Assembly: GCA_018394295.1 (NCBI GenBank)
Contig: CP074573.1
Coordinates: 2,651,684 to 2,715,683 of the forward strand
Length of the DNA: 64,000 bases
Direction: 5' to 3'
Source: Mycoplasmatota bacterium
Lineage (GTDB): Bacteria; Bacillota_I; Bacilli_A; Haloplasmatales; Haloplasmataceae
A program made the position numbers and the translations under genes. Positions 42,259-61,794 of the stretch are shown here, one piece after another. Position 1 is the stretch's first letter, and the number at the start of each line of letters is the position of its first letter. The notes beneath the pieces were generated by a model. It saw only the letters and a program-made list of their open reading frames with translations, ran no database searches and was not told where the DNA came from.

Positions 42259-44172
42259 CTATTTATAAATCCCACAGGCTACGATTATCACTACATACAA
42301 TACAGCAATTATATTTGCAAGAATATAACCTATCTTTCTTTTATCTTCCGTTTTTCTTTTTATCGCTGAAATTAAATTCCTGCATAGAGTAAACATTATC
42401 AATACTACTGCTATAATATTAACTATAAAATGAATTTTTAAATCATTATAACTAGGATACATTGATGATCTATAGAACAAAATGCCTGTATTCACAATTG
42501 AAACAAATCCAACTATATTCAATATTATCATTCTTTTAGCCTTAATGGAAAGATTATTTTTCCTTTTCAATCCATAAATTACTGAAATAATAAATGCAAA
42601 GATAAAATATATTAAACTGAAAACAAGAAAAGCCATTACTCCTAAACGACTTATAACTACTAAGTTACTTATAGGCTCATATTCTCCATATTCCTGATAC
42701 ATACTTTTTACTTGTCCGTTTATAACATCCAAATAAATTAACTCACTAGCTCCACCTTTATCTGTATATTGATAGACATACGGTCTTATTTGATAATAAA
42801 CATCCCCATCAATATCTATTGTGTTTTCATCAACTACTGTAACTTCATTTATAATTAAATTCATCCATTGTGAAAACCCACTGTGAGTTCTTCTCATACT
42901 CCAATAGTTTCCTTTTACAATACTTGAATCTGGAAGTTCACCATCAAAATTATCTGTTTTATATGAACCGAATATCTTGTCTTTAAGCCCAAAACATATA
43001 GCTCTTTCATGTGCTTGATTGCTCATTATAAGAACTGCCACTCCTTCTTCTGGTGCAAAGGTGATTTGAGCTGAAAATGAATCAGTATTACCACCATGTT
43101 CCAATGTACGAACAGAGTAATAATGCTCCCAAAAGCCATGAGAGATACCTGGAAAATCATCGGTTGGTACATAACTTTTTGAAAACAAGAAATCAAGCGT
43201 ATCTTCCTTTTTGAACAATGGTGATGTTTCCCCATCTTTTGGGATTAATGCACTGACAAATTTACACATATCAGATAATGTTCCAATCGCACCACCAGCA
43301 GGGTAAAGTCCTAAATAATAAATTGGTCTTTCTTTAAAACCGTTTGAATAACCCTTGGTTAACTGACGATTTTTTTGAATAAACAAGTTATCCTCTTGTA
43401 ATGGATGGATGGATGTTTTCTTCATATCAAGAACATCAAAAATATATTGATTTACATATTCATAAAAATCCATACCTGTAATACATTCAACAATATAAGC
43501 GGCTAAACCTGCACCATAATTAGAATAAGATACTACCTCACCTGGTTTATAAACCTGTTTTGGCTCAAAGATTTCTAATGTTTCTTTTAACGATTTCACA
43601 TTTTGTGGATTACTATTAAATAAATCAGTCAGATGTTCTTCCCAACCACCATTATGATTCATAAGATTTAACATAGTAATTGGCTGTTTAAACTGTGATT
43701 TTTTAAAAAAGTTTTCTGGTAAATATACTTTGATATCTTCGTTTAAATCTAATTTATCTTCCTCTACTAACTGCATAACGCTAACCCAAACAAATAATTT
43801 GGTTACTGATCCCCACTCAAATACTGTATTATCTGTAATAGGAATTTTGTTTTTAATATCGCTGTATCCATAGTTTGATTTAAATATGGTTTCATCATTT
43901 TGTAAAACTGCTACAGATGCTCCAGCAGTCGTATTACCTATATATTCATTTACATAGTTATCGATAACATCCTTTAACTCTGAGTAAGCAATACCTGAAG
44001 GTGTATAATTTGTTTCCTCTGCAGAAACTTTTAATGAAAGTGATGACATTAACAAAACAAATAACAATAAAGTAAACATGGTTCTAGATATAATTTTATG
44101 CATATAAATCTCTCCTTTATTTTTATACACATAGTATAAATGGGTAATATTTCTATAAAGTGAGAGAAACAT
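42259..44172 (-). CDS. beta-lactamase-family serine hydrolase with C-terminal polytopic membrane domain. Probable start MHKIISRT (~44103)
   Basis: Signal peptide, SVTK (S-x-x-K), YSNYG (YxN), HGG region. ~6 TM helices at the C-terminus. Immediately downstream of the HK/RR pair. Confidence 0.7.
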   Translation of the reverse strand: MFLSLYRNITHLYYVYKNKGEIYMHKIISRTMFTLLLFVLLMSSLSLKVSAEETNYTPSGIAYSELKDVIDNYVNEYIGNTTAGASVAVLQNDETIFKSNYGYSDIKNKIPITDNTVFEWGSVTKLFVWVSVMQLVEEDKLDLNEDIKVYLPENFFKKSQFKQPITMLNLMNHNGGWEEHLTDLFNSNPQNVKSLKETLEIFEPKQVYKPGEVVSYSNYGAGLAAYIVECITGMDFYEYVNQYIFDVLDMKKTSIHPLQEDNLFIQKNRQLTKGYSNGFKERPIYYLGLYPAGGAIGTLSDMCKFVSALIPKDGETSPLFKKEDTLDFLFSKSYVPTDDFPGISHGFWEHYYSVRTLEHGGNTDSFSAQITFAPEEGVAVLIMSNQAHERAICFGLKDKIFGSYKTDNFDGELPDSSIVKGNYWSMRRTHSGFSQWMNLIINEVTVVDENTIDIDGDVYYQIRPYVYQYTDKGGASELIYLDVINGQVKSMYQEYGEYEPISNLVVISRLGVMAFLVFSLIYFIFAFIISVIYGLKRKNNLSIKAKRMIILNIVGFVSIVNTGILFYRSSMYPSYNDLKIHFIVNIIAVVLIMFTLCRNLISAIKRKTEDKRKIGYILANIIAVLYVVIIVACGIYK

Positions 44173-44349
44173 TAATATAACATTAAATTATAACTAAAGA
44201 ACAGATACTTTATTTTCTTACATTTTACGATTAATCTAAAATTTATACAGATATGGAAATTTATGATATAATCAAATGAGATTTTGTACATCTTTTCTTT
44301 GAATTGTATCTTATATATAGAATTTACGAAGTAATGTCGTTAACTTTTA

Positions 44350-44886
44350 TTGTATTTAGATTATGAAAAAATAAGGGTGCATAGTAATACTTTGTATAAA
44401 AGGAGAAGAAAAACAATGAGTTATAAATTTGTTCCTATGAATAAAAAATATGCAAATGAGATTGCATACAATTGGAAATATAATGGGATTTTTTCATTCT
44501 ATGATATGACAGCTGATGAAGAAGATCTAGATGATTTTCTTAATGAAGAAAATTGGGATGGAATTTATTTTGGAGTGCTAAATGAAGAATGTGAGTTAAT
44601 TGGATTTTATTCATTTAATTTTGAAGACGACATTATGTGGTTGGGATTTGGTCTTAAACCAGAATTAACAGGAAGAAGTCTTGGATATGAGTTTGTAATT
44701 TCAGGTATCAATTTTGCAATAAAAAAGTTTAATTATAGAAAAAATTATGTTATGCTGGCAGTCGCCTTATTTAACAAAAGAGCAATCAGATTATATGAGA
44801 AAATTGGATTTCAACCTATAGAGAAATATATGCAAAAAACAAATGGGGGAGAATTTGAATTTATCAAAATGAAGAAATATTTATAA
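44350..44886 (+). CDS. GNAT-family N-acetyltransferase. Probable start at MSYKF (~44416)
   Basis: Acetyl-CoA binding motif region RSLGYEFV. RBS AAGGAGAAG precedes the internal ATG. Confidence 0.65.
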   Translation: MYLDYEKIRVHSNTLYKRRRKTMSYKFVPMNKKYANEIAYNWKYNGIFSFYDMTADEEDLDDFLNEENWDGIYFGVLNEECELIGFYSFNFEDDIMWLGFGLKPELTGRSLGYEFVISGINFAIKKFNYRKNYVMLAVALFNKRAIRLYEKIGFQPIEKYMQKTNGGEFEFIKMKKYL

Positions 44887-45159
44887 ATAATATTATTGGG
44901 ATACTATTTATCGTAGTTAAAGTATCAAAGTAAATAGATCAAATTTTTAAGAAGGTCATTTACTTTTTTTTAATTTTAACTTATCTTTTATAATTTCCAT
45001 TTTATTAAAATAATTTGAGCACACAATATAATTTAAGCCATTTATAATATATTTTTTCTATTAATCCTTTTTTTTGAAAGTATAATATGGTACCTGCAAA
45101 TAACATTAATGGATAACATTCTAACTTAATTTATACTGTTAAATTATATTATCATTCAA

Positions 45160-46074
45160 TTAAGCTTTCAGCAAAAAAGATTCTTGAATCATTGTTTCAT
45201 TTTTTCTTATCCATTTAAACATTTCAGCTGCATTTTGAGCAAGTTTGTAGTCTTTATTTTTTGTAAAATATGCTAAAAATAATATTTCAATACACTCCAT
45301 TACGCAACTAGCAGACTTTTTCTCATTGTCTGTTAAAGATATATTTCTCTCATATCCTATAATAAAGTTCTTTAATACTATAAACCATTTATTTATTTTT
45401 TCTTTATCATTAATACAATCAATAAGTAAACCAAGTACAAAGTAACATATGTCAAAGATACGTATGTTTTTTTGAGATAGATCAAAGTCTATATAACCTG
45501 AGACCTTTCCTTGTTCAAACAATAGATTTCCAAAATGTAAATCTCTATGAATAAGCTGTTTAGGTAATTCTGAATAGACCTCATCAAGTCTTCTAACAGT
45601 TACTAAAAACTCTTCTTTACTAACAAGTGAATAACCCTCAGAATCAAAAACATCTTTAATCCAACCGTTCATTTCTGTTAAGAGACTATTTTCCCAACAT
45701 TCTATTTTGTTTTGACATTCTAAAAAAGCAAGATGGAGCTTAGCTATAATATCCCCAGATTCTTGTGCAATATCAATGTAATTCATATCATATATATTTT
45801 TTGTATGTCTTCCACAAATTCGTTTGCTTAGGATAAAATATTTGTCTTCAACAATTACTAAATTATCTCCATGTATTGTTGGAACTATTTCTGCCACTGG
45901 TATTCCGATCTCATTAAGACATTTTATGATTGTCAGATTTCTCTTTGCACTCTCTAAATTTTTTCCTGATTTTATTATATAATCAGGACCTATTGACCAA
46001 GCACTTGTATATATTTGGTTCACAGAATCACTCTTTATATCCCAATTATGCAAAACATCAACTACCTTTATCAT
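45160..46074 (-). CDS. phosphotransferase enzyme family protein (APH/CotS/homoserine-kinase-II-like)
   Basis: Catalytic loop HRDLHFGNLLF and DFD motif (IDFDLSQ). Confidence 0.7.
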   Translation of the reverse strand: MIKVVDVLHNWDIKSDSVNQIYTSAWSIGPDYIIKSGKNLESAKRNLTIIKCLNEIGIPVAEIVPTIHGDNLVIVEDKYFILSKRICGRHTKNIYDMNYIDIAQESGDIIAKLHLAFLECQNKIECWENSLLTEMNGWIKDVFDSEGYSLVSKEEFLVTVRRLDEVYSELPKQLIHRDLHFGNLLFEQGKVSGYIDFDLSQKNIRIFDICYFVLGLLIDCINDKEKINKWFIVLKNFIIGYERNISLTDNEKKSASCVMECIEILFLAYFTKNKDYKLAQNAAEMFKWIRKNETMIQESFLLKA

Positions 46075-47025: not shown

Positions 47026-47805
47026 TTACTCTGATAAGAACCTTTCAACCATAACATTATTACGATTATAAACATATTCATCGTTTCCACAACCTTGTAA
47101 AACAATTTGATCATCAGTAAATCTATTAATGGTCCAATAAGTACCTTGGTTGGTTTGAATACATTTACCATTTTCACAAACATTTTTATTAAATTCAACA
47201 TCTTTTACTTTTTCACCTAAATCACAAATCCACCAACAATAAGCTTCTTTATTATCTTTATAATTTCTAATTCTAAAATATTGTCCTCCTCCAAACAATC
47301 CATTATCATAAGGTATATTTATAGATATTCCACAGTAAATATTATCTTTCTCTTTTGATATTGAAAATACATATTGAAGTTTATTTGTTTGCATATAAAA
47401 ATATAATGATTCACTATTTAAATTAAAACTAATACCTAAAGTCCATATTTTTAAACATCTTGCGATACCTACCTCACTTACCGAAGGAACTTTAGAATGA
47501 CTATCAATTAAATTAATAGAATCTTTTAATAATAAATCTACGTCTTTTTCATATGTAGACCAATCAAATTCTTCATTTAATATATTTACATATTTGTCAG
47601 TATTAGAAATAATTTCATTTTTATTATTTAAAAATGAGTATGATGAAATAACACTATCTTCTAATTTTCTTTCTACAATCGCTAATAATTTCCCTTCCCT
47701 ATATAATTTGGTCCCATAATAATCTTTTTTTCTATAGTGCAATAATATAAATTGTTCAGTTATTGTTAATTCTAAATCCCTTTTTGCATATACTCCAGTT
47801 TTCAT
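47026..47805 (-). CDS. hypothetical protein (259 aa) with C-terminal Cys-rich segment
   Basis: ORF only. CWWIC, CENGKC and GCG motifs near the C-terminus. Confidence 0.35.
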   Translation of the reverse strand: MKTGVYAKRDLELTITEQFILLHYRKKDYYGTKLYREGKLLAIVERKLEDSVISSYSFLNNKNEIISNTDKYVNILNEEFDWSTYEKDVDLLLKDSINLIDSHSKVPSVSEVGIARCLKIWTLGISFNLNSESLYFYMQTNKLQYVFSISKEKDNIYCGISINIPYDNGLFGGGQYFRIRNYKDNKEAYCWWICDLGEKVKDVEFNKNVCENGKCIQTNQGTYWTINRFTDDQIVLQGCGNDEYVYNRNNVMVERFLSE

Positions 47806-47845
47806 AAATTTTTCCTTTCTGATAATTCTTTAAATCAATCGCTTA

Positions 47846-48676
47846 TTATTTATTAAAATACTTTACATTTCCATCCCATATATTATAACAAAAACCATTA
47901 GGTCTGTTAACAATCATATCTACAAATGATAATAATCCAATAATAGCAGGGTTATTTCGCAATGAATAAGTATTTCGTATTTCATCATCTAGTTCTATTT
48001 CAGTAGTATCTAATAAATTTAAACTTCTTAAGTCTTCAATTATTTCTTTACTTCTTTCTAGTGATAACCCGAATTCTTTCATTAACAGACTTGAAGTAAA
48101 GTTTTTATTATCTCTTGTATTTAAAAAAATTAAAACATTATAAAAATCTTCTTTACTTAATAATTCAAAAGCCTTTAGTTGTTTTTGTTTTGTATTAAGT
48201 AAGAAATTAAAAGCTGTTTCAGGCTTAGGTGCAATAAAGAAAAAAGAACCATCCTCAGCTAATCTCATCATAGTGACTCCCTCTTTTTGAACTATTTGAG
48301 AATGATTTAAATCTTTTCTAGCTATAGTTTCATCTAAAGTACATTTATTGACATCATGGTTACCAAAAAATGATTTTTCCATGTTCCAACACATATTCAA
48401 TACCTCTTGATATTTATCCTTTTTACTAGGGATAGCAGCAATATATTTTGCTATTAGTTGTTCACAATTATCAAATTCATGTGAAGGCAATCCGAATAAA
48501 AAATCTGTTGATACATTAAAATAATTTGCTATAGACGGTAAAAGTTCAATATCAGGTAATCCTCCATTTTCCCATTTACTCACTGCTTGTGTAGAAACAC
48601 CAACAGCTTTGGCTAATTCCTCTTGAGTTATTCTTTTTTTAGTTCTTAACTCTTTAATCTTCAATCCAATATTCAT
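47846..48676 (-). CDS. XRE-family HTH transcriptional regulator with ~210-aa C-terminal domain (RNPP/Rgg-like architecture possible)
   Basis: N-terminal HTH_XRE (IKELRTKKRITQEELAKAVGVSTQAVSKWENG). Confidence 0.7.
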   Translation of the reverse strand: MNIGLKIKELRTKKRITQEELAKAVGVSTQAVSKWENGGLPDIELLPSIANYFNVSTDFLFGLPSHEFDNCEQLIAKYIAAIPSKKDKYQEVLNMCWNMEKSFFGNHDVNKCTLDETIARKDLNHSQIVQKEGVTMMRLAEDGSFFFIAPKPETAFNFLLNTKQKQLKAFELLSKEDFYNVLIFLNTRDNKNFTSSLLMKEFGLSLERSKEIIEDLRSLNLLDTTEIELDDEIRNTYSLRNNPAIIGLLSFVDMIVNRPNGFCYNIWDGNVKYFNK

Positions 48677-49926: not shown

Positions 49927-49963
49927 ATATCAAAAAAGGCACTGTAAAACAGTACCTTTTATC
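49927..49963. repeat. dispersed 35-bp palindromic repeat, copy 5
   Basis: TATCAAAAAAGGCACTGTAAAACAGTACCTTTTA, ~30 nt upstream of the 49895 start. Confidence 0.55.
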
Positions 49964-50212
49964 ATTTATATCTTTATTTCCCTTCATAAACCACAGACAC
50001 TACAACCTCTACATGCCTTGTTTTGGGTGTAGGTACACGCTAGTTGTTACTCGTTTGTTGATCTTTCAATATACTCTAATTCTAAATCTAAATAATAGGC
50101 AAAATACACGAACAACTGAGTTGCATTTTGTTTATGCTATCCTAATTCTGAGCTATCTTCAATAATTTTTAAATACTGGTTATTCATTATAACCGTTCTC
50201 CTTCTGGTACAT

Positions 50213-51274
50213 TTATAATTGATTAACTACATTAAGAAGCATAAATCGAACACCTTTACTTTTATATGAAAAATCATTAAAGCATCCAATGATATATGTA
50301 TCTTTTTCCTGGTGATAAAACATAAACGCACCTGTTGCCCCTGCAGCCCCCCAGGAATTGAATTTTTTAGGCATCAACAAAGGCACGGTTGTAAACTTCC
50401 AAATTCCGTATCCATAATCAATTCCTAGTCCAAATCTAGCACAATTATTCTTCATTTCTTCAAGGGTATTTTTTGTCACTATTTGATAGTTCACCAAAGC
50501 TTTCATGAATTTGAGTAAGTCTTCATAAGTAGCCACTACTCCTCCACCGGTATAGTCAAGACCGGCATACCCTTTAATATCATTTAATCTGGTTTCACGT
50601 ATAAAAAAATCGGCAGTAGGAAACTGGGATTTTTCCATTGGCTCTGAATAGTGATTCATATATGAGTGCCTCATATCAAGAGGTTCAAAAATATAATTTT
50701 TTAATGTAGCATGAAATGGTTCACCGGTGATACTTTCGATTATCAAACCTAGTAATTGATAATTTGTATCTGTATATTTGAATCCTTTACCCGGAGGAAA
50801 ATGAGGTCTTGTATTATTTTTTACCCAGACAACTGCTTCTCTGGGCGTTATATTTAGATTCTGATCCTTAATAAGTTCATCTAAGAGAGTCCAAAAATTA
50901 TCAGCTAAACCCGATGTTTGATTTAGCAGATGTTTGATCCTGATTTCATCAGTATAGTCCTTCCCCTTGTATAAATGTAGGTTATTCAATAACTCATGAT
51001 CTAAGTATTTAGTGATTTTATCATCAAAAGACAACTTTTTCTTTTCTACTAATATGCCGATAATTGCTGAAGTAAACAATTTACCCACACTAGCCATATA
51101 GATTGGCTGCTGCGGGTTGGCAGGCATATTACCCGTTGACCCTTCTGCAATATTTATGTGAATGCCTTCTTTTTCCGAATGAACTAATAAATAAGCGTTC
51201 TTTATTTTACTATCTTTTTGCACTTGTTTTCTAAACGTGTTTTCTATTGATTTTTGTAAATTGTTTGTTTTCAT
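50213..51274 (-). CDS. beta-lactamase-family serine hydrolase (class C-like / PBP4*-like), cytoplasmic or secreted
   Basis: SVGK (S-x-x-K: MASVGKLF), YTDTNY (YxN), HLLNQTSGL. Confidence 0.75.
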   Translation of the reverse strand: MKTNNLQKSIENTFRKQVQKDSKIKNAYLLVHSEKEGIHINIAEGSTGNMPANPQQPIYMASVGKLFTSAIIGILVEKKKLSFDDKITKYLDHELLNNLHLYKGKDYTDEIRIKHLLNQTSGLADNFWTLLDELIKDQNLNITPREAVVWVKNNTRPHFPPGKGFKYTDTNYQLLGLIIESITGEPFHATLKNYIFEPLDMRHSYMNHYSEPMEKSQFPTADFFIRETRLNDIKGYAGLDYTGGGVVATYEDLLKFMKALVNYQIVTKNTLEEMKNNCARFGLGIDYGYGIWKFTTVPLLMPKKFNSWGAAGATGAFMFYHQEKDTYIIGCFNDFSYKSKGVRFMLLNVVNQL

Positions 51275-51386
51275 TCTTTTATCTCCTCTCTACATAGAAA
51301 ATTCTTGTTTTACTACTAGACATAACTTTATAAGATGCATTATGTCAAAATCTGCTTAACTGAGATTCTAAACCACATTTTTTGCT

Positions 51387-52090
51387 CTAGGAAAAACCAT
51401 TCCAAAGCAGGGGGTCACAACTGATCCTAGAGCAACCATAAGAAGTACCAAGGCAAGGAGCCAACCTAACACGGGTACCATGGTCAATACTCCCACAAGT
51501 AGCACTCCCAACGCTAAAGCTTTGAAGCCAGGGGGTAGGTGTCCTGGTCGCTGAATCTCTTCTGAAATTCCGGGTAGAGGTACTACCCCTTAAGCAGTTT
51601 TTCATACAACACATTAGCATCACATGTTGCAATAAAGTAATCGGCTTCAAAAGATTTACTGTTACTCAAGGTTACTCTCCTCACTGAATCTCCTTCGATT
51701 TCCAGCTCCACTGCCTCACAGGAAATCTCAATATTTCCGCCCAGGGCAAGATACTTTTCTTTCATCCGCCTGGCCAGAGCCCTTGAGCCCCCTAAGGGAA
51801 TAGAAGATTGGCGTCCGGTAAAAGTTCCGAGCGAACAAATTATCGATACAGCACTGTAATCACTTTCAGTCAAGGGCTCCTACAGCATTCCACAATTCCC
51901 GGATGGGGGTTCCTTCTTTTGTCCCTACCAGCCAGTGAATGCAACCATCAATATGATATCCCTGACGATCCCAGCCAGTACATTCTCCACCTAAAGAATG
52001 GTGCTTCTCCAAAATAATGCTTTCAAAACCATTTTTTTTGACAAACATACCTGCGCTTAATCCAGCGATTCCTCCACCGATAATATCAAT
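51387..52090 (-). pseudogene. FAD-dependent oxidoreductase (CrtI/phytoene-desaturase-like) fragment with multiple frameshifts, located in a GC-rich foreign segment
   Basis: N-terminal dinucleotide-binding motif IIGGGIAGLSAG is out of frame with the ATG. Three overlapping ORF pieces. Only ~230 codons are present out of the ~490 expected for this family. Local GC ~48% vs ~27% genome. Confidence 0.55.
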
Positions 52091-52096
52091 TTATCA

Positions 52097-52672
52097 TTAC
52101 AAATTCTCCTTTCGTTTCATTTGTTGTGCTAGCATTACGTCATCTCCCACTTCCATAAGCAACTGGTCGAACTCTTGATTATCGAGCCACGAAGGCATAT
52201 GGCCGTTGGCCACCATGACTGAGAGTCCCATCTGAAAGACCCGCAATTTCAGAAACAATCGTTTACGTTCCTTAAGAGTCCAGCCTCGCATAGCTTCATC
52301 CTCAGCCATTGCCTCAAACATGGCATTCTCTATTGTTTCATAAGAAGTCATATATGGATTAGGCTGTATTGACAATTCCCGAAACAACACCGGGTACTCC
52401 TTAGCAAAAGCCAAGCTGGCTTTCCCAATCTTTTCAAACATACTTTGCCCTTTTTGCTTTGCAAACAATTCCTCCGATATAGCAAATACCTGCTGTACTA
52501 CAGCCTCTACTAAGTCATCAACAGTAGCAAAATTAACATAGATTGGAGCGACCGAACAGTTAAGCCTATTCGCTACACTTCGAGCAGTGATTCCAGAAAA
52601 GCCCTTTTCTTTAGCGACCTCCAAAGCGGCATCCAAAATAGTGTTTTTATCAAATTTTGTTTTTGGTGGCAT
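52097..52672 (-). CDS. TetR-family transcriptional regulator (GC-rich, likely horizontally acquired)
   Basis: HTH ILDAALEVAKEKGFSGITARSVANRLNCSVAPIYVNFATVDDL. GC-rich codon usage unlike neighbours. Confidence 0.8.
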   Translation of the reverse strand: MPPKTKFDKNTILDAALEVAKEKGFSGITARSVANRLNCSVAPIYVNFATVDDLVEAVVQQVFAISEELFAKQKGQSMFEKIGKASLAFAKEYPVLFRELSIQPNPYMTSYETIENAMFEAMAEDEAMRGWTLKERKRLFLKLRVFQMGLSVMVANGHMPSWLDNQEFDQLLMEVGDDVMLAQQMKRKENL

Positions 52673-53164
52673 ATTAACATCTCCTTACACCGTGTTATAT
52701 TACTTAAGTTATATAATATGGTGTAAGGAGATGTTAGTCAAGTGTAATTTGGAATTTAACTTGATATTTTTAAAGGAATATCAGAAGTGGTAAGCATAAA
52801 TATTATCTAAAACTATAAAGAAATGCTTCCAAACTTCCGATTAGTTATTATTTATATGTAACCAGCAGACGTCTATTAATAATAATTGTTAGACGAAGTC
52901 TTACCATACCTCAAATCAAAAAAGATATTATGAAGTAAAATTCATAATATCCCTTGTATTTTACGTTATATCAAAACCGCCTTACTTATGGTACGGTTCA
53001 CCGTATCATAAATAAATGAGGTTTTTATCAATTTAATTTTTATTACTATCTACTTAGATTCCTATTCTGAATCCGAAAAATATGATTCACTTTTACTATC
53101 AAAATAATTCTTTATCAAATTTTAGTCCTTTATGATTTAACACATAGTTAGTTAACAGAAATTG

Positions 53165-54181
53165 TTACAACAGCTTAATACTCGGGTTGCTAAAGTTTGC
53201 CCATGCTATATTATTGTCAATAGATCTAACCATTCTGTAAGCTATTGGCTTAAATCCACACTTAGGCCAAAAGGTTGAAGCAGAAAGGTTGCTTATTTTC
53301 CAATCTGCTATTATGCTATTATATCCCTTTTCCTTCATAATCCTGTAGCCTTCATTCATTAACTTTTTACCAACACCTCTTCCACTTTGGGAATAGTAAG
53401 TGCCCGCAATATTTAGCTCTACTCCATCATCAGGTGCCATCAAATCTGGAGTAATAGGATCATATATATGAAATCCTAATTCCTTCTTATCCTTTTCCGC
53501 AATAAGAATCGTTGAATCATTATCCTCTACTGAACTTTTATACCCAACGTTTATTTTCATTACAAGTTCAGGTATTACAGGTAAAAAAGTAGGTGCTGAA
53601 TTTAGAGATGAGAAGATTATGCTGGACATATTACCCATTCTTTCACTATCATTTTTGTTAGCAAATCTAATCTCTGCATCAGATAAATTTTCAAAAGGCT
53701 TGTAATCCTCCATATTCATTATCCCATATACATGATCAATAGAAAAGCTTAATCGTAGGAAGGCTTCATAGTACACCTGATTTCCAAGAGGTATAAATGT
53801 ATGATGGCTGAAGCAGCCTTGTTCAAGCCATACAACAGAAACCTTTGCATAAAGCTCCCTTATAAGCTCAGAGGATTGATCCATTCTGATTGCTATTCCC
53901 TCATAGGGCACCCATACATGTCTACCTCTACCCCTTAAATTGTCAATTTTTATATCACCAATTATATAACCTACTAGTTCATCATTAGCAAAAGCTCCTA
54001 TTCCAATCACTTTGCTATTAACAATCAAATTTTCAAGTAAATTAGTGATATATTTTGCATTAAGACAACTGTTCTTCAGGGATGGAAACCCCTTACTTTC
54101 AAGGTTTTGCCTGCATATTAACAACTCAGACATTGCAGGTATATCCTCAATAGTAATTGTTCTGAATTCACATTTGTTCAT
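53165..54181 (-). CDS. GNAT-family acetyltransferase (338 aa, possibly tandem GNAT folds)
   Basis: C-terminal motif RGVGKKLMNEGY. N-terminal second acyl-CoA N-acyltransferase-like region. Confidence 0.6.
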   Translation of the reverse strand: MNKCEFRTITIEDIPAMSELLICRQNLESKGFPSLKNSCLNAKYITNLLENLIVNSKVIGIGAFANDELVGYIIGDIKIDNLRGRGRHVWVPYEGIAIRMDQSSELIRELYAKVSVVWLEQGCFSHHTFIPLGNQVYYEAFLRLSFSIDHVYGIMNMEDYKPFENLSDAEIRFANKNDSERMGNMSSIIFSSLNSAPTFLPVIPELVMKINVGYKSSVEDNDSTILIAEKDKKELGFHIYDPITPDLMAPDDGVELNIAGTYYSQSGRGVGKKLMNEGYRIMKEKGYNSIIADWKISNLSASTFWPKCGFKPIAYRMVRSIDNNIAWANFSNPSIKLL

Positions 54182-54386
54182 TCCTGTACCTCCTCGATAA
54201 ATTTATATTACATGTTCTATCATAGAAAATATTATTAAATATTCAAAATAATTTTGCTAGTTGTTATGGTGTAAGATATTCATCAGCACTAAATGTAGTA
54301 AGTTTAAGCAATATTCCATCATGCTTTTCCTCCCTCTTTTATTAACCGCTTATATCTTAATCATTTTTTCTTGAAATAACAAAGTT

Positions 54387-55355
54387 TTATATCTCTAACA
54401 TCAATTTACCCATTATGCTCCAATCATATATGCCCGTTACTTGAACTGCTTTCTTTCCATTATGAGTTTTAAAAGATAGCTTAATAGGAAATGACATCAA
54501 TAGAAATTCATGATTACCTAATGGTATTAGTTTTATATTTTTAAAGAAAAAAACCTCACAGTATATATTCTCTTTGGATTCATCTAATTTAATTTTTAGC
54601 TCATGCTGCCTATCATCAATTGTAACAGAATATCTTCCACAATATTGTTGCAGAAATTCAGGTACTATCACCTTTTCATAATTATACTCTAACCCCAAAT
54701 ATTCCATTAAATCCTTCATATATTTTTCCCATAATTCATTTGAGGTGTTTATCTTAATTTTATTACCTTGGTAACGCCTGAACATAGTATCGGCAATTTC
54801 TTGGTAATTTTCCCACATATTATAAACACTATCATCGCCTTTATATTCATGCTCATTAAAATAGCCTTCTCCTTCTGCATTGAGAATAATATTTTTCCAT
54901 CTTTCTCCACGAACTTCAAATGCCGTTCTAAAGGAATCTCTTAATTCTGAACGATATAAAAATACTATAGTTGGATTAAGTTTTGAGATTATTTCCATAA
55001 CTGTATCATAAAACTTAGTTATTTTTTCTATTGAATAATTACAGTTAAAGAAATAACGTATTATATTCTGATATAGACATCCTTCCATTATAAATACATC
55101 ATCAGATTTCTCTATGTCGTCAGCTAATTTTCCCCATAAACTGTACATATATGAAACATTTTTATCCATATCTTCTTCAGAATCTATACTTGCAATACTA
55201 AACTCTTTGTCTCGTATAGGATGAGCTTTAATTTCTTCATGTAACCATCGATGTTTAATCCCATTTTGTTCATATTGATATGCTAACTTCTGTGAAGTAG
55301 TAGATTTACCAGCTCCACTTATCCCTGTGACAATAATTAATTTAGAATCTTTCAT
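54387..55355 (-). CDS. P-loop NTPase/kinase-like protein (322 aa), hypothetical
   Basis: Walker A GISGAGKST. Start codon 22 nt from the IS6-like copy C left end. Confidence 0.5.
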   Translation of the reverse strand: MKDSKLIIVTGISGAGKSTTSQKLAYQYEQNGIKHRWLHEEIKAHPIRDKEFSIASIDSEEDMDKNVSYMYSLWGKLADDIEKSDDVFIMEGCLYQNIIRYFFNCNYSIEKITKFYDTVMEIISKLNPTIVFLYRSELRDSFRTAFEVRGERWKNIILNAEGEGYFNEHEYKGDDSVYNMWENYQEIADTMFRRYQGNKIKINTSNELWEKYMKDLMEYLGLEYNYEKVIVPEFLQQYCGRYSVTIDDRQHELKIKLDESKENIYCEVFFFKNIKLIPLGNHEFLLMSFPIKLSFKTHNGKKAVQVTGIYDWSIMGKLMLEI

Positions 55356-55377
55356 ATCTTCTCCCCCATTAGATTTT

Positions 55378-56664
55378 TGGTAGTGTAAAAGTTTTTCTTA
55401 AAACCAATACAAAACCTTATATATATTTTGTTTTTATTCTATAATGAGAATCCCCCCCTGTATTTTGGAGGAGCTCGTTATATTTTTTTATCATATAAAT
55501 ACAAAAAGATAGATACCCCTGATATAATTAAGTCACCACAACCAACCATACAGGGGGTATCTATCATGGTTAAAATTATATCAGTTCTTTCAGTATTTTT
55601 AAAGTATTTAAACAAACTACTTTATAAATTTATTCTTTTTCTAGATTCGCACATTATTTCTACACATAGTTCTAAGTCATCTGGCACTTATTATGAACCT
55701 TTTAGGAAGTTCACTGTTGATGGTGAACCTATTATTCAGAAGGTTGAAAAGCTAGATTATCAAGAATTGTTTAATGTGTATTTTTTAAAGTACAATAAGC
55801 AATTAAAACCTGTTTCTAGAAGAAATCCATCAAAACTTGATTTCAAAGGAAATTGCCCTATTTGTGGTGCTCCTCATGATTACATATATGAAAATAATAT
55901 TAAATCAAAACAGTTACTTTGTAAGGTATGTAGTCATACATTTACCTTGAATAATGATTTTCTTGAAAAGATTATTTTAAAATGTCCTCATTGTTCAAAG
56001 AACCTTGAAAGAATTAAAGACCGTAATAGTTATATTATTTATAAATGTAGACATAAGAATTGTTCCTTCTATTTAGATAAATTAAAGAAATTAACACCAG
56101 ATCAATTAAAACAATTCAAAAAGAAACCAGGTAAATTTAAACTTCATTATATTTATCGTGCTTTCGATATTTACTTTGATTCCCTAGAACGTGACTCTAT
56201 ATCAAATTTAAATATGAAGGTTGATTTAGCCAATATCAGACATTCTAAGCATACTCTAGGCTTAATCTTAACGTATTACGTTAACTACGGTTTGTCGAGT
56301 AGGAAAACTGCAGCTATCATGTATGATATTCACCAAGTTAAGATTTCCCATCAAACCGTGATGAATTATGCAAAGAGTGTTTCTACAATGATTCGTCCCT
56401 TACTTGAAAATTACCCATATGATTTATCATCTGACCTTTGTGGGGATGAAACATATGTTAGGGTTAAGGGGAAGAAGCATTATATCTTCTTCTCAGATAA
56501 AATTAAAAAGATTATTACTTCTTATCAAGTTTTTAGTAAACGTGATACTTTTTCTGCAGTTGTTTCACTATATCAAACATTCAAAAAATACACTGAACTA
56601 CCTAAGAATTTGAAAGTAGTTGTGGATGGTAATCCTATTTACAACGCTGCATGGTCATACTTAT
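55378..56664 (+). mobile_element. IS6/IS26-like insertion sequence copy C, truncated at the right end
   Basis: Left IR GGTAGTGTAAAAG and left arm conserved. Similarity to the other copies stops at ~56664, inside the transposase gene. No right IR or TSD. Confidence 0.75.
55564..56664 (+). pseudogene. IS6-like transposase, 3'-truncated (ends after ...NPIYNAAWSY then unrelated sequence)
   Basis: Near-identical to copies A and B up to the truncation point. The annotated ORF 55428-56708 runs into flanking DNA. Confidence 0.75.
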
Positions 56665-56699
56665 TCTCTCAAACTCCTCCTTCTTGTCCAAATATGCTT

Positions 56700-57249
56700 C
56701 ATATATAGCCCTCTGTGCTTTTTCTCTAGCCATACAATCTGCACTTTTCTTCATGGTACATAATTCATTTGAAGATATTTCTCTTCCCTCAAGTGAATAT
56801 TGTAAGGTTTGTACAAGCATCTGATATTCATTTTGTAGCATTTGATCTTGCATCAGAAGCTCCTGTCCTTTATTAGTTCTCAAACTATCTTGAAACTGTC
56901 TTTTAATTATAATCCCATATTCTTCTGTCAACTGACTTATAAATTTCGAATTTAAAAATCCACTGCATAAATTTGCTGGTAATATGATAGAATCTGCCAC
57001 AGCAGTAAACTCCACATACTCTTTTTGATAAAACTCATCAGTTATATCACATAAAAACCTTAATTATACTAATACTGCCTGTGTGCGTACCTTACTTACA
57101 ATTTCCTCATAAGTTTCATATAAAGCCTTAACTTCCAGATAAGACTTGGCATTTTTTACTTTATCCGAAATCCCTTCTAATCTCTTAGACACCATCTCTA
57201 TATCAGGCCTCTTATACTGTAATTCCCTATATGTACATTTTTCCTGCAT
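56700..57249 (-). pseudogene. 5' fragment of an M3-family oligoendopeptidase F-like gene, truncated at the IS6-like copy C junction
   Basis: N-terminal piece MQEKCTYRELQYKRPDIEMV... and second frame-shifted piece ...EFTAVADSIILPANLCS. No catalytic HExxH region remains. Confidence 0.4.
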
Positions 57250-57607
57250 CTATTTATCTTCCTTCCACCATTAAATAAGTTTATACTTAAGTTCCATGTG
57301 TATTTTTTATTATCGTCAAACCAGCACTTTCTCCTCTAATAATATTATATACTGCAACTTCAAAATATTCAATATTATACCATTACTTCGCTTATATGTT
57401 AGCAAAACAAGTTTTGTTCACATTTTGTTAACATTCTTCTGTGAGTGTTGTGTCCAATATTTCGATAATGATGCCAATCTTTGTCCTTGCTCTAATTCTA
57501 ATACCAAACGAGCTAAGTTAATAATTGAAAAATATAAAGAAGTTACTCCTAGGAATGGTATATACTCAAAAGAAAAGTTCTATGAAGAGTTTATGAATAT
57601 GACGTAA

Positions 57608-57665
57608 AAAACCACGACAAATTGTCGTGGTTTTTATTGGTGGAGGCGAATCGAACTAAGCGAAA
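57608..57665. repeat. ~55-bp repeat R1 (hairpin CCACGAC..GTCGTGG + TTTT + TGGTGGAGGCGAA(T/C)CG(A/C)AC), copy downstream of the alkylsulfatase gene
   Basis: Shares ~45 conserved positions with 59841-59900. The hairpin, flanked by A-run and T-run, acts as a bidirectional intrinsic terminator. Confidence 0.6.
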
Positions 57666-57721
57666 TCCACCATATTTTTTTTATGATATGGTTCTCTATT
57701 TAGCTCAATTGCTGTTTTTTA

Positions 57722-59683
57722 TTATTTTTCATAATTTTTTTTCTTTGATACAGGTGTCATTATATTGAAATCCAAATCTATTTTGTCTTGCACCCATAGA
57801 AACAACTGCCACTTGCAAATATCTCCTTCTACTATTATTGCTGAACTATCTGGTCTGTTATTAGTTGTTGCTAGCTCATACAATGTATCTTTTGACATTG
57901 TAACTGTTACAGCTGCATCATCAGCAAGTTTATTGTTTAAATATCTAAATATTCCTCGTCTAATTTCAGTCGAGGCTACTTCTTTTTTATCAGGAATAAC
58001 AAAATTAATTTTATAATCAAAATCTCCAGCTTTCAATCCATCTATTCTTATACTAAACAAATACAATACATTCTCAAGTGGTAGCGTATTTAAAACCTCC
58101 TCAGTTATAAGAGAACGGTTAATTAAGATAATTCCTTGGCGTAATTCTTGTGCTCCCATTAAATATTCATTTCTCCATGGACCTGATTCTGCTATATATC
58201 CTAATTGCTCTAAAGCATCTGCACAAAGCAGTTTTGCATCTTTATTATTGGGATTAGCGTATATAACTTGTTTAGTAACCTCTGCTACCCATTGATATTC
58301 ACCCTTTTCAAAGGATTTCTTAGCCTTTTCTAAAACAGAATTCTCTCCACCCATGTATTCTATATATTTTTTTGCCGATTCCTCTGGGAGTAATTTGTTT
58401 AAATCTACAGGGTTTCCATTGTACCATCCAATATATTTTTGATAAACAGCTTTTGAGTTATGACTTACAGTTCCATAGAATGAACTATCATACCACTCAT
58501 CGCTTAAACTTTCAGGAAGTTTAACCATTCTGCCAACTTCATCTATTGTATATCCTTTATTTATCAATCTTAAAGTTTGATCGTTTATATATTGATATAA
58601 ATCCCTTTGTTTCTCCATGTAATCTATGCAGTATTCATTGCCAAATCTTGGCCAGTTGTGAACTTCAAATATTGATGTTAAATCATTCCCCCATAAGTCT
58701 ATAGCTTTTTGTATATCCTTAGCCCATGCAACTGGATCTCTAACTTCTGCCCCTCTTAAAGTATATATATTATGAAGTGTTGCAGTACAGTTTTCTGCTA
58801 TACACAAAGATTTTTCACTTGGAATATATATATCCATTTCTGCAGGAGCCTCAGTATCTTCTGTTAATAGAAACTGCATAATTAATCCATCAATTTCTTT
58901 TTCTACATACTTCTCATTTGCAATCTGAGATATTTCATAAACATTATCTGTAAAGGTTACTGTTCCTGAAGAAACATACTTACCAATACCACAGTCTATT
59001 TGACCTTTTTTATCACGTGGTAATACTTCACCATACATATACAAGCCTCTGCGAGTCATTGCAACTCCTGCATTTACATTTTCTTCTATGACTGCATCAG
59101 TAAAGCCTTTTGGCGCATATACCTTAATATTTTTTTCTGCACTACTATTTAATACTCCTAATATTCCTCCATAATGATCTACGTGGGAATGAGAACATAT
59201 TACAGCACTAATTGGTATGTCTCCAAAATATTCATTAACTAACTTTATTGCAGCTTCTGCTGTTTCTTGTGAAGTTAAACAATCTATTATAATCCAGCCT
59301 GTATTTCCTCTAACAAAACTCATATTTGCTAGATCAAAACCTCTAACCTGATATATTTTTTCTGTAACCTTAAATATACCAGAAATTAGATTCAACTTCC
59401 CTTGTTCCCAAAGTTTCGGATTAACAGTATAGGGGATTTTATCCTTTAATAAAAAATTATACCTTTCTAAATCCCATACAGGCATTAAAGCTCCTTCTAT
59501 ATATATTACAGGGAGTGGTACATCAACAACCACATTCTTTTTCGCTAATTTTTCTTCAATTTCCAATCTACCCCAGTGAATATTCTTATATATTTCTTCA
59601 TTTATTAACTTTGTTTTAAGGGTAGCATTTTTTCTTCTACCATTTAGTTCTTCGGTATTATTTTTTTTCTCTTTACAATTCAA
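57722..59683 (-). CDS. MBL-fold alkyl/aryl-sulfatase (SdsA1/BDS1-like) with C-terminal SCP2-like domain
   Basis: Metallo-beta-lactamase motif HSHVDHYGG. 653 aa, a length typical of type III alkylsulfatases. Confidence 0.75.
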   Translation of the reverse strand: MNCKEKKNNTEELNGRRKNATLKTKLINEEIYKNIHWGRLEIEEKLAKKNVVVDVPLPVIYIEGALMPVWDLERYNFLLKDKIPYTVNPKLWEQGKLNLISGIFKVTEKIYQVRGFDLANMSFVRGNTGWIIIDCLTSQETAEAAIKLVNEYFGDIPISAVICSHSHVDHYGGILGVLNSSAEKNIKVYAPKGFTDAVIEENVNAGVAMTRRGLYMYGEVLPRDKKGQIDCGIGKYVSSGTVTFTDNVYEISQIANEKYVEKEIDGLIMQFLLTEDTEAPAEMDIYIPSEKSLCIAENCTATLHNIYTLRGAEVRDPVAWAKDIQKAIDLWGNDLTSIFEVHNWPRFGNEYCIDYMEKQRDLYQYINDQTLRLINKGYTIDEVGRMVKLPESLSDEWYDSSFYGTVSHNSKAVYQKYIGWYNGNPVDLNKLLPEESAKKYIEYMGGENSVLEKAKKSFEKGEYQWVAEVTKQVIYANPNNKDAKLLCADALEQLGYIAESGPWRNEYLMGAQELRQGIILINRSLITEEVLNTLPLENVLYLFSIRIDGLKAGDFDYKINFVIPDKKEVASTEIRRGIFRYLNNKLADDAAVTVTMSKDTLYELATTNNRPDSSAIIVEGDICKWQLFLWVQDKIDLDFNIMTPVSKKKNYEK

Positions 59684-59840
59684 AGTAACACCTCCAATAT
59701 TACACTACACTTTAATTTATTCAGACTATCCGTTAAGTGTGATGTATAACAACATAAAGTAGTAAATCTACATGGATAAATATTTATCTTATATCTACTT
59801 AATGATACTTGCTACTTGTATTTATTCAAAAAAACAATAA

Positions 59841-59900
59841 AAAAACCACGACATCAAGTCGTGGTTTTCAATGGTGGAGGCGAACCGCACCTTGCTACCA
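59841..59900. repeat. ~55-bp repeat R1, copy upstream of the alkylsulfatase gene
   Basis: AAAAAACCACGACATCAAGTCGTGGTTTTCAATGGTGGAGGCGAACCGCAC, a direct repeat of 57608-57665. Confidence 0.6.
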
Positions 59901-60420
59901 TTATGTCACCCAAACTTAATAAACTCATCTCTTATTTATGATATATTTACTCTATCATCATCAAAATTTAAAAATTTCCTCAATTCTTAACTACTTTAAT
60001 CACGGCATTTTAACTTCCTATTAATAGACATAACTGAACAATTATCTAAAACTGATAATTTTACCTATTAATTGATTTCTTCAAAATAACAATTCATTAT
60101 AGTATTCTACAAACTTCTAACTATACCTTTTAAATATCAGTAAATATTCCAATATATTTATATTTTATCATCAATATATAAAATAAACATTAATTTACTA
60201 ATATACAATTTACAATACACAAAAAGACCATGAATTTTTAAGCTATAATAGCTCTCTTCATAGTCTTTCTCTACTTTATATTAAATTTGAAATAACATAT
60301 CCCCTTATACCCTATCAAATACCAACTCTTACTTTAACACCATTAATTTGCTCTTTATTCTTAAAATCATCACCTTTTGAGCTAAAGTTAAAAAGCTGGT
60401 AAAGTGCGCGAATTCAACGT

Positions 60421-61794
60421 TTACAAGGTATCTTTGCGTTGTATTCCTATTACACATTCCACATGCATCGTATGTGGGAACATATCAACTGGTTGTACCT
60501 CAATAATCTTATAATTATTTTCATTTAATATCTTTAAATCTCTTGCTAAGGTTGCTGGGTCACATGATACATAAACTATTCTTGGTATTTCCATTTCAAT
60601 TATAGTCTCTAGTAGTTTCTTATCGCACCCTTTTCTTGGTGGGTCTACAACAATCACATCTGGTTTAATGTTATCCTCTTGCCAGTTTTTTATGATTTCT
60701 TCTGCCTTACCTGCTTCATAATGGGCATTAGTGAAATTATTTAACTTCGCATTTAATTTCGCATTTTCAATCGCATCTGGTATGATTTCTACCCCGTATA
60801 TCGCTTTCGCTTGTTTCGATAAATATAGTCCAATTGTTCCAATTCCACAATAAGCATCTATTATATATTCATTTCCTGTTAGATTAGCATATTCTAAGAC
60901 TTTATCATATAACTTTTTAGTTTGAACTGGATTTACTTGATAAAATGAACGTGATGATATCGCAAACTTCACATCCCCTATATAATCATAAATATAAGGT
61001 TTTCCATAAAGAACAACAGTTTTTTCTCCCATAATGGTATTTGTCTTACTTTTATTAATATTTTGAATAATTGATTTAATTAGAGGAAATTTTGTGATTA
61101 AGTCATTAATAACCTCTTCTTTATTTTTTAGATTCTCTTCCTTTGTTACTAAGGTAACCATATATTCATCTGTTATATATCCTTTTCTTACAATCACATG
61201 GCGTAGAATCCCGCTATGTGATTCTTCATTATAAGGAGTAATATTATACCTTTTAGAAATAACCTTCATATAATTAATGATTTCATCCGTTACTTTATCT
61301 TGAATATCACAACTTGTCATATCGATAATCTCATGGGTGTTTTCTTTATAAAATCCCGCTACAACATTACCATTACTTAAACCAAATGGTACTTGTGTCT
61401 TATTACGATACTTCCAACTATCATCCATTCCTATACAATCATGGACATTAATATCAATTTTCCCAATTCGCTTTAAAGTCTCTTGAACCATATCTTTTTT
61501 TATAGTTAATTGCCCATTATAAGAAAGATGTTGAATACTACATCCACCACACTGATTATATATTGGGCAATTTGGCTCTACTCTGTCCTCACTTTTTTTA
61601 TACATTTGCAATACTTTACCAATCGCAAAATTCTTTTTTATCGCAATGATTTTGACAGATATCGATTCCCCGGGTAATGAATTTTTGATAAATATCGGAA
61701 AATTATTAACTTTTGCGACACCTAATCCTTGATGTGTCATTCCTGTTATTTCAACATCATATAGTCTATTCTTTTCTACTGGCCTACTAGTCAT
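60421..61794 (-). CDS. rlmD: 23S rRNA (uracil-C5)-methyltransferase RlmD/RumA family (TRAM + 4Fe-4S + SAM-MTase)
   Basis: N-terminal TRAM domain, Cys cluster CPIYNQCGGCSIQH, class I MTase motif DAYCGIGTIG and catalytic DPPRKGC. Confidence 0.85.
   Translation of the reverse strand: MTSRPVEKNRLYDVEITGMTHQGLGVAKVNNFPIFIKNSLPGESISVKIIAIKKNFAIGKVLQMYKKSEDRVEPNCPIYNQCGGCSIQHLSYNGQLTIKKDMVQETLKRIGKIDINVHDCIGMDDSWKYRNKTQVPFGLSNGNVVAGFYKENTHEIIDMTSCDIQDKVTDEIINYMKVISKRYNITPYNEESHSGILRHVIVRKGYITDEYMVTLVTKEENLKNKEEVINDLITKFPLIKSIIQNINKSKTNTIMGEKTVVLYGKPYIYDYIGDVKFAISSRSFYQVNPVQTKKLYDKVLEYANLTGNEYIIDAYCGIGTIGLYLSKQAKAIYGVEIIPDAIENAKLNAKLNNFTNAHYEAGKAEEIIKNWQEDNIKPDVIVVDPPRKGCDKKLLETIIEMEIPRIVYVSCDPATLARDLKILNENNYKIIEVQPVDMFPHTMHVECVIGIQRKDTL

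Follow-up and report, generated by a model that had tools for sequence, protein, structure and literature searches.

A decayed TetR-oxidoreductase cassette in a Mycoplasmatota genome as likely cargo of an immobilised mobile element at the rlmD 3' end

The window considered here is a stretch of 64,000 nucleotides from a Mycoplasmatota bacterium of the Haloplasmataceae (GenBank assembly GCA_018394295.1, contig CP074573.1, positions 2,651,684 to 2,715,683 of the forward strand). Our subject is a patch at 51380-52690 of this window, rich in guanine and cytosine (GC), which carries an intact gene for a TetR-family regulator (tetR) and the remains of a gene for a CrtI-like flavin adenine dinucleotide (FAD) oxidoreductase. 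Comparison with a metagenome contig, L034, and with the rRNA methyltransferase gene rlmD leads us to regard the patch as very likely the decayed cargo of an rlmD-site mobile element that was immobilised by deletion of its recombinase gene. The features that matter to this argument, including the attachment (att) site at the right end and open reading frames (ORFs) that survive only in part, are as follows:

60421..61794, minus strand: rlmD (rumA), gene for the 23S rRNA U1939 methyltransferase, an open ORF of 457 amino acids (Pfam TRAM and tRNA_U5-meth_tr; annotated RlmD in the source record), the proposed integration target
52673..52887, minus strand: AT-rich region upstream of tetR, common by homology to the metagenome element L034
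52097..52672, minus strand: intact gene for a TetR/AcrR-family regulator of 191 amino acids (Pfam TetR_N)
51870..52097, minus strand: oxidoreductase pseudogene fragment 1, codons 1-77 of 499 by comparison with intact homologues
51515..51872, minus strand: oxidoreductase pseudogene fragment 2, codons ~192-311 by the same comparison
51368..51521, minus strand: 3' part of a small hydrophobic membrane-protein ORF (68 amino acids in L034, by homology)
50213..51274, minus strand: intact serine-hydrolase (Beta-lactamase family) gene of 353 amino acids (PF00144; 33.6% GC), in the same acquired block
50059..50187, minus strand: HD-domain pseudogene, of which ~43 codons from the start survive, interrupted by a stop; a 2565-bp deletion took the remainder
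50010..50060, minus strand: 51-nucleotide relic, with stop codon, of the 3' end of a gene for a large serine recombinase of 597 amino acids (by homology to L034)
49974..50015, minus strand: right attachment site (attR, GA at 50009-50008), followed by the native rlmD 3' end in displaced position; L034 homology extends as far as 50008

At 43.9% GC (0.439), the patch lies far outside the range of other 1.3-kb windows across the 64-kb sequence (mean 28.1%, standard deviation 2.4, maximum 33.5; z = 6.6), and its tetranucleotide usage is likewise deviant (L1 distance 0.567, against 0.246 +/- 0.030 and a maximum of 0.334 elsewhere). GC peaks at 0.505 in 200-nucleotide windows inside the patch, changes in a sharp step at ~52690 and again at ~51380, and at third codon positions (GC3) amounts to 0.43 in tetR as compared with 0.15-0.22 in neighbouring host genes. 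A sequence-only reading of this DNA had reported a jump from ~27% to ~48% GC and proposed sliding-window and tetranucleotide analysis as a check; the jump is borne out by that check, although the figure of ~48% holds only locally. The patch is real, and it is foreign: its composition is deviant, and its nucleotide identity reaches 94-96% with metagenome contigs and 95% with Wukongibacter, against at most 79% amino acid identity between the core gene rlmD alongside and its nearest relative.

Within the patch, the regulator gene is whole, as had been noted from the sequence. Its ORF (52672..52097, minus strand) encodes a two-domain protein of 191 amino acids, identical (100%) to QVK17681.1 and 96% identical to a protein of Wukongibacter baidiensis (Clostridia), with an N-terminal helix-turn-helix above the Pfam threshold (TetR_N, PF00440; residues 12-58; 32.9 bits against a cut-off of 24; E = 5.5e-08) and matches to TetR-family structures in PDB over residues 6-118. 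A look-up of this exact protein in the gene-position index found no entry. In Wukongibacter, tetR is followed by an intact FAD oxidoreductase gene of 499 codons that overlaps it at TAATG, and the window aligns with this locus in two pieces of 95% and 93.6% DNA identity. Relative to intact homologues, the oxidoreductase gene in the window has suffered a 2-bp deletion immediately after its ATG (52097..52095), a 344-bp internal deletion that joins fragments 1 and 2 (junction 51872-51870), a nonsense codon (CAG>TAG) at 51585, and the loss of its last 568 nucleotides in a 914-bp deletion that also took the start of the small hydrophobic ORF and fused the 3' part of this ORF to the oxidoreductase remnant. 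About 588 of the 1500 nucleotides are retained (39%), and the remaining 61%, comprising codons 78-191 and 312-499, is physically gone; the fragments still match NAD_binding_8 (2e-15) and positions 192-262 of the 443 in the Amino_oxidase profile. The earlier view that the enzyme gene was inactivated while the regulator was kept is thus upheld, as is the remark that the GGGIAG motif and the ATG lie in different frames, which the 2-bp deletion explains. To call the gene frameshifted, however, describes only part of the damage, the gene being also internally deleted, truncated and interrupted by a nonsense codon, and the three overlapping ORFs into which it seemed broken are two oxidoreductase fragments and the tail of another gene. 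Over its whole length, the intact homologue can be aligned with the crtI_fam profile (TIGR02734), and it bears a distant similarity to Pantoea CrtI (PDB 4dgk, 5.8e-08). Its score of 96.6 bits is below the family cut-off of 238.1, which makes the enzyme a distant CrtI relative in an uncharacterised sister group. A literature search on the function of the TetR-CrtI-like pair returned nothing relevant.

The extent of the foreign DNA emerges from four metagenome contigs, L032 to L035, that are 99.8-100% identical to one another. In their order, an rlmD-like 3' end is followed by an ORF of 259 amino acids with fragments of a second recombinase gene, then by tetR, the 499-amino-acid oxidoreductase gene and the small hydrophobic ORF, then by the serine hydrolase and HD-domain genes, and finally by the gene for the large serine recombinase of 597 amino acids, which is intact in L034 (Pfam Resolvase, Recombinase and Zn_ribbon_recom). 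The window matches L034 in four colinear pieces:

52887..51870 corresponds to L034 2704..3723, 96% nucleotide identity
51872..51515 corresponds to L034 4068..4425, 94% nucleotide identity
51521..50059 corresponds to L034 5340..6801, 95.5% nucleotide identity
50060..50008 corresponds to L034 9367..9419, 92% nucleotide identity

Judged by this homology, the acquired block extends at least from 52887 to 50008 and lies within an insertion of ~10.45 kb, so that the island size of 1.3 kb given previously does not hold. The last ~135 GC-rich nucleotides of that island (51514-51380), which had no match in the first 29 genome loci and were traced only through L034, belong to the small hydrophobic ORF. 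At the far end, the 2565-bp deletion has removed most of the HD gene and all but 51 nucleotides of the recombinase gene, and the deletion junctions show microhomology of only 0-3 nucleotides. The hydrolase falls within the PF00144 fold family only, its best score among the NCBIfam bla equivalogs being 42 bits (bla_class_C) against a cut-off of 415. L034 itself contains, upstream of tetR, a second and fragmented copy of the recombinase 5' part (L034 ~1630-2280, 83% nucleotide identity to L034 7670-7955), in which an ORF of 78 amino acids matches Pfam Recombinase; this arrangement suggests a tandem accretion of two rlmD-site elements.

These contigs bear directly on how the GC-rich DNA arrived. 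A 1.3-kb fragment might have been taken up directly from a much higher-GC donor, without mobile-element machinery, and its enzyme gene quickly inactivated; such an event would suit the sharp GC steps as well as the occurrence of the 2.23-kb TetR-oxidoreductase cassette (L034 2790..5019) alone, with sharp borders, in unrelated contexts in Wukongibacter (98.4% identical to L034) and in contig L030 (94.6%). We nevertheless consider direct uptake very improbable. The L034-type homology passes both GC borders, reaching 52887 upstream and, by way of the hydrolase gene, the HD remnant and the recombinase relic, 50008 downstream, and the att architecture at rlmD, described below, accounts for the insertion. 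Moreover, because the same step lies inside L034 and Wukongibacter, where a cassette of 42-49% GC is set between flanks of ~30%, the GC step was imported ready-made, and therefore a direct high-GC transfer is not needed. The immediate vehicle would have been a low-GC (30-36%) element that already carried the cassette. Of the supposed recent uptake from a much higher-GC donor, the foreign origin stands and the direct donor is unlikely; the homology search proposed for naming the donor yielded the close matches given above, none of which names an ultimate source for the cassette.

The second body of evidence lies at rlmD. The 3' end of rum/rumA (the same gene as rlmD) is a cross-species hot spot for serine recombinases (PMC5053989), and elements at this site insert at the GA of a GAG codon 11 codons from the end of rumA, supply a replacement tail at the left junction, and carry at their right end a recombinase gene that runs into the displaced native tail (PMC4120198). 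In the window, the left junction (attL) is the GA at 60459-60458, which follows CATGTG in rlmD, and the last 12 codons and stop of the gene (60457..60421, ECVIGIQRKDTL and stop) are supplied by the inserted element, in frame, so that rlmD remains open. This tail and the next ~30 nucleotides are homologous to the tails in Abyssisolibacter (L037; 85% over 47 nucleotides) and in L034, and do not resemble native rlmD tails in relatives (HVECVVLLVRK among them). At attR, the GA starts the series GAG GTT GTA GTG TCT GTG GTT TAT GAA GGG AAA TAA, that is, 11 codons and a stop, whose peptide (HVEVVVSVVYEGK and stop) is very similar to the C-terminus of the native Haloplasma contractile RlmD (HVECVVSMVCEGK). 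The insertion point is accordingly the GA in a GAG, 11 codons from the rlmD 3' end, as in the known class. L034 likewise starts with an rlmD 3' end and ends with the recombinase gene and then the rlmD tail HIECLAYLES and stop. The ORF of its 597-amino-acid recombinase crosses the junction, whereas the window retains only the non-functional 51-nucleotide 3' relic (50060..50010). An rlmD tail of the form HVE(T/C)VV... stands directly after the recombinase gene in 8 of 10 related viral contigs, and the best phage relatives of the L034 recombinase, at 49-52% amino acid identity over 87-96% of the length, are those of streptococcal '_rum' elements and of Erysipelothrix phi1605. The statement that no insertion sequence or repeat marks the boundaries had thus missed the recombinase relic, the interruption of rlmD at its 3' end and an ORF at 55428-56708 that resembles a DDE transposase.

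On the insertion model, an uninterrupted rlmD would end ...CCACATACGATGCATGT(G/A)GAGGTTGTAGTGTCTGTGGTTTATGAAGGGAAATAA, and the attachment site of the element (attP) was reconstructed as ...ACACCCAAAACAAGGCATGTA-GA-ATGTGTAATAGGAATACAACGC.... Internal att-like junctions were sought by local alignment to this attP, and the candidates near window 52900 and L034 2670 scored 31 and 25; shuffled sequences equalled these scores at p = 0.12 and 0.17, and a tandem-element junction at either place is not supported. Directly after the displaced rlmD tail, at 49934-49962, there is a hairpin with a T-run (AAAAGGTACTGTTTTACAGTGCCTTTTTT), probably the original rlmD terminator, which would now end transcripts coming through the element.

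The control region upstream of tetR has been retained. A sigma-70-type promoter (TTGACT-17-TATTAT) is predicted at 52741..52713, together with the ribosome-binding site AAGGAG, and an imperfect palindrome of 62 nucleotides (52736..52675; 31-nucleotide arms, 90% complementary) holds a conserved candidate operator, TATAACTTAAGTAATATAAC, at 52713..52694. The core of this operator consists of half-sites of the ATAAC-N4-GTTAT type just downstream of the -10 element and is kept in all of the diverged loci, including the archaeal ones (Methanosarcina), across which the promoter is conserved as well; no TetR operator besides this single occurrence was found in the window. Compared with intact copies, the promoter, operator and ribosome-binding site are unchanged except for a mirror-symmetric pair of substitutions that preserves the palindrome. 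The pair (T>C at 52720 and A>G at 52691) makes up two of the four window-specific upstream changes and occupies exact mirror positions of the 62-nucleotide palindrome with complementarity kept, for which a rough estimate of chance is ~0.02; either selection for symmetry of an operator or hairpin or templated quasi-palindrome correction may account for it.

With L034, Wukongibacter and L030 used for polarisation, the substitutions found only in the window lineage distinguish the two genes of the cassette. In tetR there are 7 synonymous to 5 non-synonymous changes against a neutral expectation of ~2.5:9.5 (binomial p = 0.005 for the excess of synonymous changes; omega ~0.2), whereas the ratio of 6 to 21 in the oxidoreductase remnant is exactly neutral, and the density of substitutions in the remnant is 2.2-fold above that in tetR (p = 0.02). 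The pattern shows, as far as substitution counts can, purifying selection on tetR and neutral evolution of the remnant. The serine-hydrolase gene has 7 synonymous and 20 non-synonymous window-specific changes (omega ~0.7). It is conceivable, if unlikely, that TetR is intact purely by chance and that the block as a whole is dead DNA in the course of being lost, in which tetR has not yet been hit: the hydrolase gene next door is also intact and yet near neutral, the rest of the block's genes are all broken, the counts are small, and a comparison of tetR with the oxidoreductase remnant by Fisher's test yields p = 0.06. Set against this are the departure of tetR from the neutral ratio, a substitution density half that of the adjoining pseudogene, and a control region unaltered but for the palindrome-keeping pair. 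On balance, TetR is probably still made and autoregulates. Because no predicted terminator is left between tetR and the hydrolase gene after the 914-bp deletion, according to a simple consensus scan, TetR might, speculatively, now also control read-through into the intact serine-hydrolase gene.

The sequence of events that we propose is therefore one of arrival as cargo followed by decay in place. A two-gene cassette, consisting of the promoter and operator, tetR and the CrtI-like FAD oxidoreductase gene, would have arrived in a small low-GC integrative element with a large serine recombinase that targets the GA in the eleventh-last codon of rlmD. The insertion would have swapped the rlmD tail for an element-encoded one (attL, 60459/60458) and pushed the native tail ~10.45 kb away (attR, 50009/50008). 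Illegitimate deletions at 0-3 nucleotides of microhomology would have followed, that of 2565 bp freezing the element in place through loss of nearly the whole recombinase gene and the greater part of the HD gene, that of 914 bp removing the oxidoreductase 3' third and the start of the small membrane ORF, and that of 344 bp cutting the oxidoreductase gene internally; the 2-bp deletion and the nonsense codon would have come after these larger deletions. On this account, the ~10.45 kb of 60457..50010 were inserted at the rlmD hot spot, may be composite, and became immobile when the recombinase gene was lost; they form a defective element of a kind already known from Gram-positive bacteria, that of the rumA/rlmD-site serine-recombinase elements, in a host lineage new to it. 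The survival of a regulator whose partner enzyme gene has rotted is an ordinary fate of horizontally acquired DNA.

Several points weigh against this account. An empty attB was not found, and a metagenome scan with the reconstructed attB gave nothing; a scan with the conserved P-arm 24-mer also gave nothing, that collection evidently being without the L034 sample. The nearest rlmD relatives, at 76-79% amino acid identity, are syntenic upstream and differ in everything downstream of rlmD; this comparison shows a plasticity zone with unrelated DNA, which speaks for the insertion, but offers no empty site. The 10.45 kb may have come in as a single element or through tandem accretion, which the second recombinase relic upstream of tetR in L034 suggests and the scores of the internal att-like junctions do not support. 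The selection test rests on 12 substitutions in tetR and 27 in the oxidoreductase remnant, some of the window-specific branch may be older than the loss of function in the oxidoreductase gene, and the near-neutral ratio of the intact hydrolase gene (7:20) means that an intact gene is no proof of a gene in use. A more radical objection, that the GC-rich segment is an assembly artefact or a contaminant, might be raised from the fact that one public TetR relative comes from a record flagged UNVERIFIED_CONTAM. It can hardly be correct: the segment bears private lesions (three deletions, the 2-bp deletion and 43 private substitutions), is colinear with AT-rich element DNA on both sides, and is bounded by att junctions that involve the host's own rlmD and a Haloplasma-like displaced tail, and the source record is a single 3.2-Mb contig.

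The insertion holds further cargo between tetR and rlmD:

57722..59683, minus strand: metallo-beta-lactamase-fold / alkyl-sulfatase gene, cargo between attL and attR (Pfam Alkyl_sulf_dimr, Alkyl_sulf_C and Lactamase_B)
55428..56708, plus strand: ORF of 426 amino acids with a partial IS240/IS6-type DDE domain (DDE_Tnp_IS240, 1.6e-08, profile positions 7-80 of 139)
54387..55355, minus strand: P-loop kinase-like gene (Pfam AAA_18), cargo
53131..54316, minus strand: GNAT acetyltransferase block (gene 54181..53165), 93% nucleotide identity to a block in Abyssisolibacter fermentans

The alkyl-sulfatase gene has no counterpart downstream of rlmD in the relatives L038 and L039. The ORF at 55428..56708, whose DDE domain is C-terminal and which also has a zinc-ribbon match, probably represents a transposase gene in decay within the rlmD insertion; no identical ORF was found in the protein collection. 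The counterpart of the GNAT block in Abyssisolibacter fermentans lies directly after rlmD, and the 1.1-kb hydrolase block (51293..50189) is 96% identical to its counterpart in Mycoplasmatota bacterium zrk1, with more than 90% amino acid identity in Clostridium sediminicola. The TetR-oxidoreductase pair is kept in 21 of 29 genome loci, including those of Methanosarcina and of Sumerlaeota metagenome-assembled genomes (MAGs), and it occurs with upstream ATAAC-N4-GTTAT operators in L020 and L023 (Methanosarcina) and in L017 and L009 (Sumerlaeota MAGs) at 64-82% amino acid identity; this distribution, as read from sequence comparison, implies that the module has passed between phyla and between domains. 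Each of the cargo blocks is mobile on its own. At its right border the cassette is identical in three unrelated contexts (...TAAGTTACTGATCTTAAAAAACTGTA; L034 4993-5019, L001 8075-8101 and L030 8075-8098), which hints at a defined cassette end rather than random breakpoints. In Wukongibacter, a Y1_Tnp (IS200/IS605-type) gene of ~295 codons (L001 4937-5827) lies 45 nucleotides upstream of the TetR cassette border, and a Y1_Tnp gene of similar size (L037 4199-5083) is found two genes upstream of rlmD in Abyssisolibacter.

Blocks with sharp borders that match different genomes (GNAT, 54316..53131; the TetR-oxidoreductase cassette; the hydrolase, 51293..50189), in a region where nearly all genes are on the minus strand, might recall an integron-like array of promoterless gene cassettes. 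The likelihood of such an array is minimal, as no attC-like or other recurrent motif or hairpin was found at the block borders, the borders lie 19-26 nucleotides from coding sequences, there is no integron integrase, and the TetR cassette has its own promoter. With no recurrent boundary element and no attC, both an integron cassette array and a cluster of attC sites lacking an integrase (CALIN) were rejected, as was a tRNA-linked island, the window containing no tRNA genes and no Rfam matches. Neither conjugation modules (relaxase, VirB4) nor virion or lysis modules were found among the ORFs of 50010-60457 or in L034, and a blastn search of the plasmid collection with the island returned no match. 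Just beyond attR, an accessory 'resistance-like' cluster (42259-46074) encodes a Beta-lactamase-family protein of 637 amino acids, a GNAT protein and an APH phosphotransferase, and a similar GNAT/APH/Beta-lactamase trio is situated downstream of rlmD in the relative L039. At 47026-48676, genes for a hypothetical protein of 259 amino acids and an adjacent helix-turn-helix protein of 276 amino acids have counterparts at least 90% identical, together on one Logan contig of 3423 nucleotides, and the pair may be another recently exchanged block.

The locus is a warning that a striking compositional island may be misread: what the GC step delimits is a cargo cassette nested in a larger insertion, not the extent of the transfer, and the real vehicle is recognisable only from a 51-nucleotide gene relic and a displaced gene tail of 11 codons. 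Current understanding of mobile elements is unchanged by it. It adds a free-living Mycoplasmatota lineage to the hosts of rumA-site elements, which are known chiefly from streptococci, enterococci and Clostridia, and documents recent gene flow (93-98% nucleotide identity) between this lineage and Clostridia. The TetR-CrtI-like pair and its operator, which are conserved in many anaerobic Bacillota, Sumerlaeota MAGs and Methanosarcina, are uncharacterised and evidently mobile, and their substrate is worth identifying. Far more tentatively, and as a notion we would sooner doubt than defend, small (~9-10 kb) rlmD-site elements may be carriers akin to the staphylococcal cassette chromosome (SCC), in which a large serine recombinase is combined with interchangeable blocks of one or two genes (TetR-oxidoreductase, serine hydrolase, GNAT) and near-identical genes (93-98%) are shuttled between Clostridia and Haloplasma-like Mycoplasmatota; the surviving TetR may in that case be an orphan repressor gating the fused downstream hydrolase gene.

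Among known systems, the CrtI or phytoene desaturase family (TIGR02734; PDB 4dgk) shares with the intact homologue a GxGxxG dinucleotide-binding N-terminus, whereas the homologue scores below the family cut-off over its full length and occurs in strict anaerobes and Methanosarcina beside TetR rather than in carotenoid clusters, and the copy in the window keeps 39% of the gene. Autoregulated repressor-enzyme operons of the TetR family (PF00440) likewise have an N-terminal helix-turn-helix and a palindromic operator, here the candidate ATAAC-N4-GTTAT, that overlaps the -10/start region of the regulator's own promoter, and in intact copies tetR is translationally coupled to the enzyme gene (TAATG); in the window, by contrast, the enzyme gene is destroyed and the regulator orphaned. 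SCC elements of staphylococci (SCCmec; CcrAB/CcrC; 3' end of rlmH/orfX) are also small cargo islands without transfer genes, inserted by a large serine recombinase into the 3' end of an rRNA methyltransferase gene that is not inactivated. The best NCBIfam matches of the L034 recombinase are to CcrB (1.4e-42) and CcrC (5.6e-38), far below the Ccr cut-offs (146 against 900 bits), and the locus differs from SCC in its target, rlmD rather than rlmH, and in containing no mec or ccr gene complex. The closest counterparts are the rumA-site elements (vanG elements, the ICE-r of streptococci and enterococci, and prophages of the Phi-m46.1 group), which have in common with the present insertion the target, a GA in the GAG codon 11 codons before the stop of rlmD, and a left junction at which the element provides the new end of rlmD. 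In L034, as in these elements, a recombinase gene occupies the right end and continues into the displaced native tail, and its product is 49-52% identical to the recombinases of '_rum' phages. The present case departs from the rumA-site elements in its host, a Haloplasma-related Mycoplasmatota rather than a streptococcus or enterococcus; in its small size (~9.3 kb in intact L034, 10.45 kb here), with no recognisable conjugation, mobilisation or phage genes; in the reduction of the recombinase gene to 51 nucleotides; and in the L034 recombinase gene, whose reading frame extends across the junction in a different register from the rlmD tail, with no in-frame fusion. Decay itself is familiar in this class, as rumA-site elements commonly degenerate by deletion into defective elements (PMC4120198, PMC5053989).

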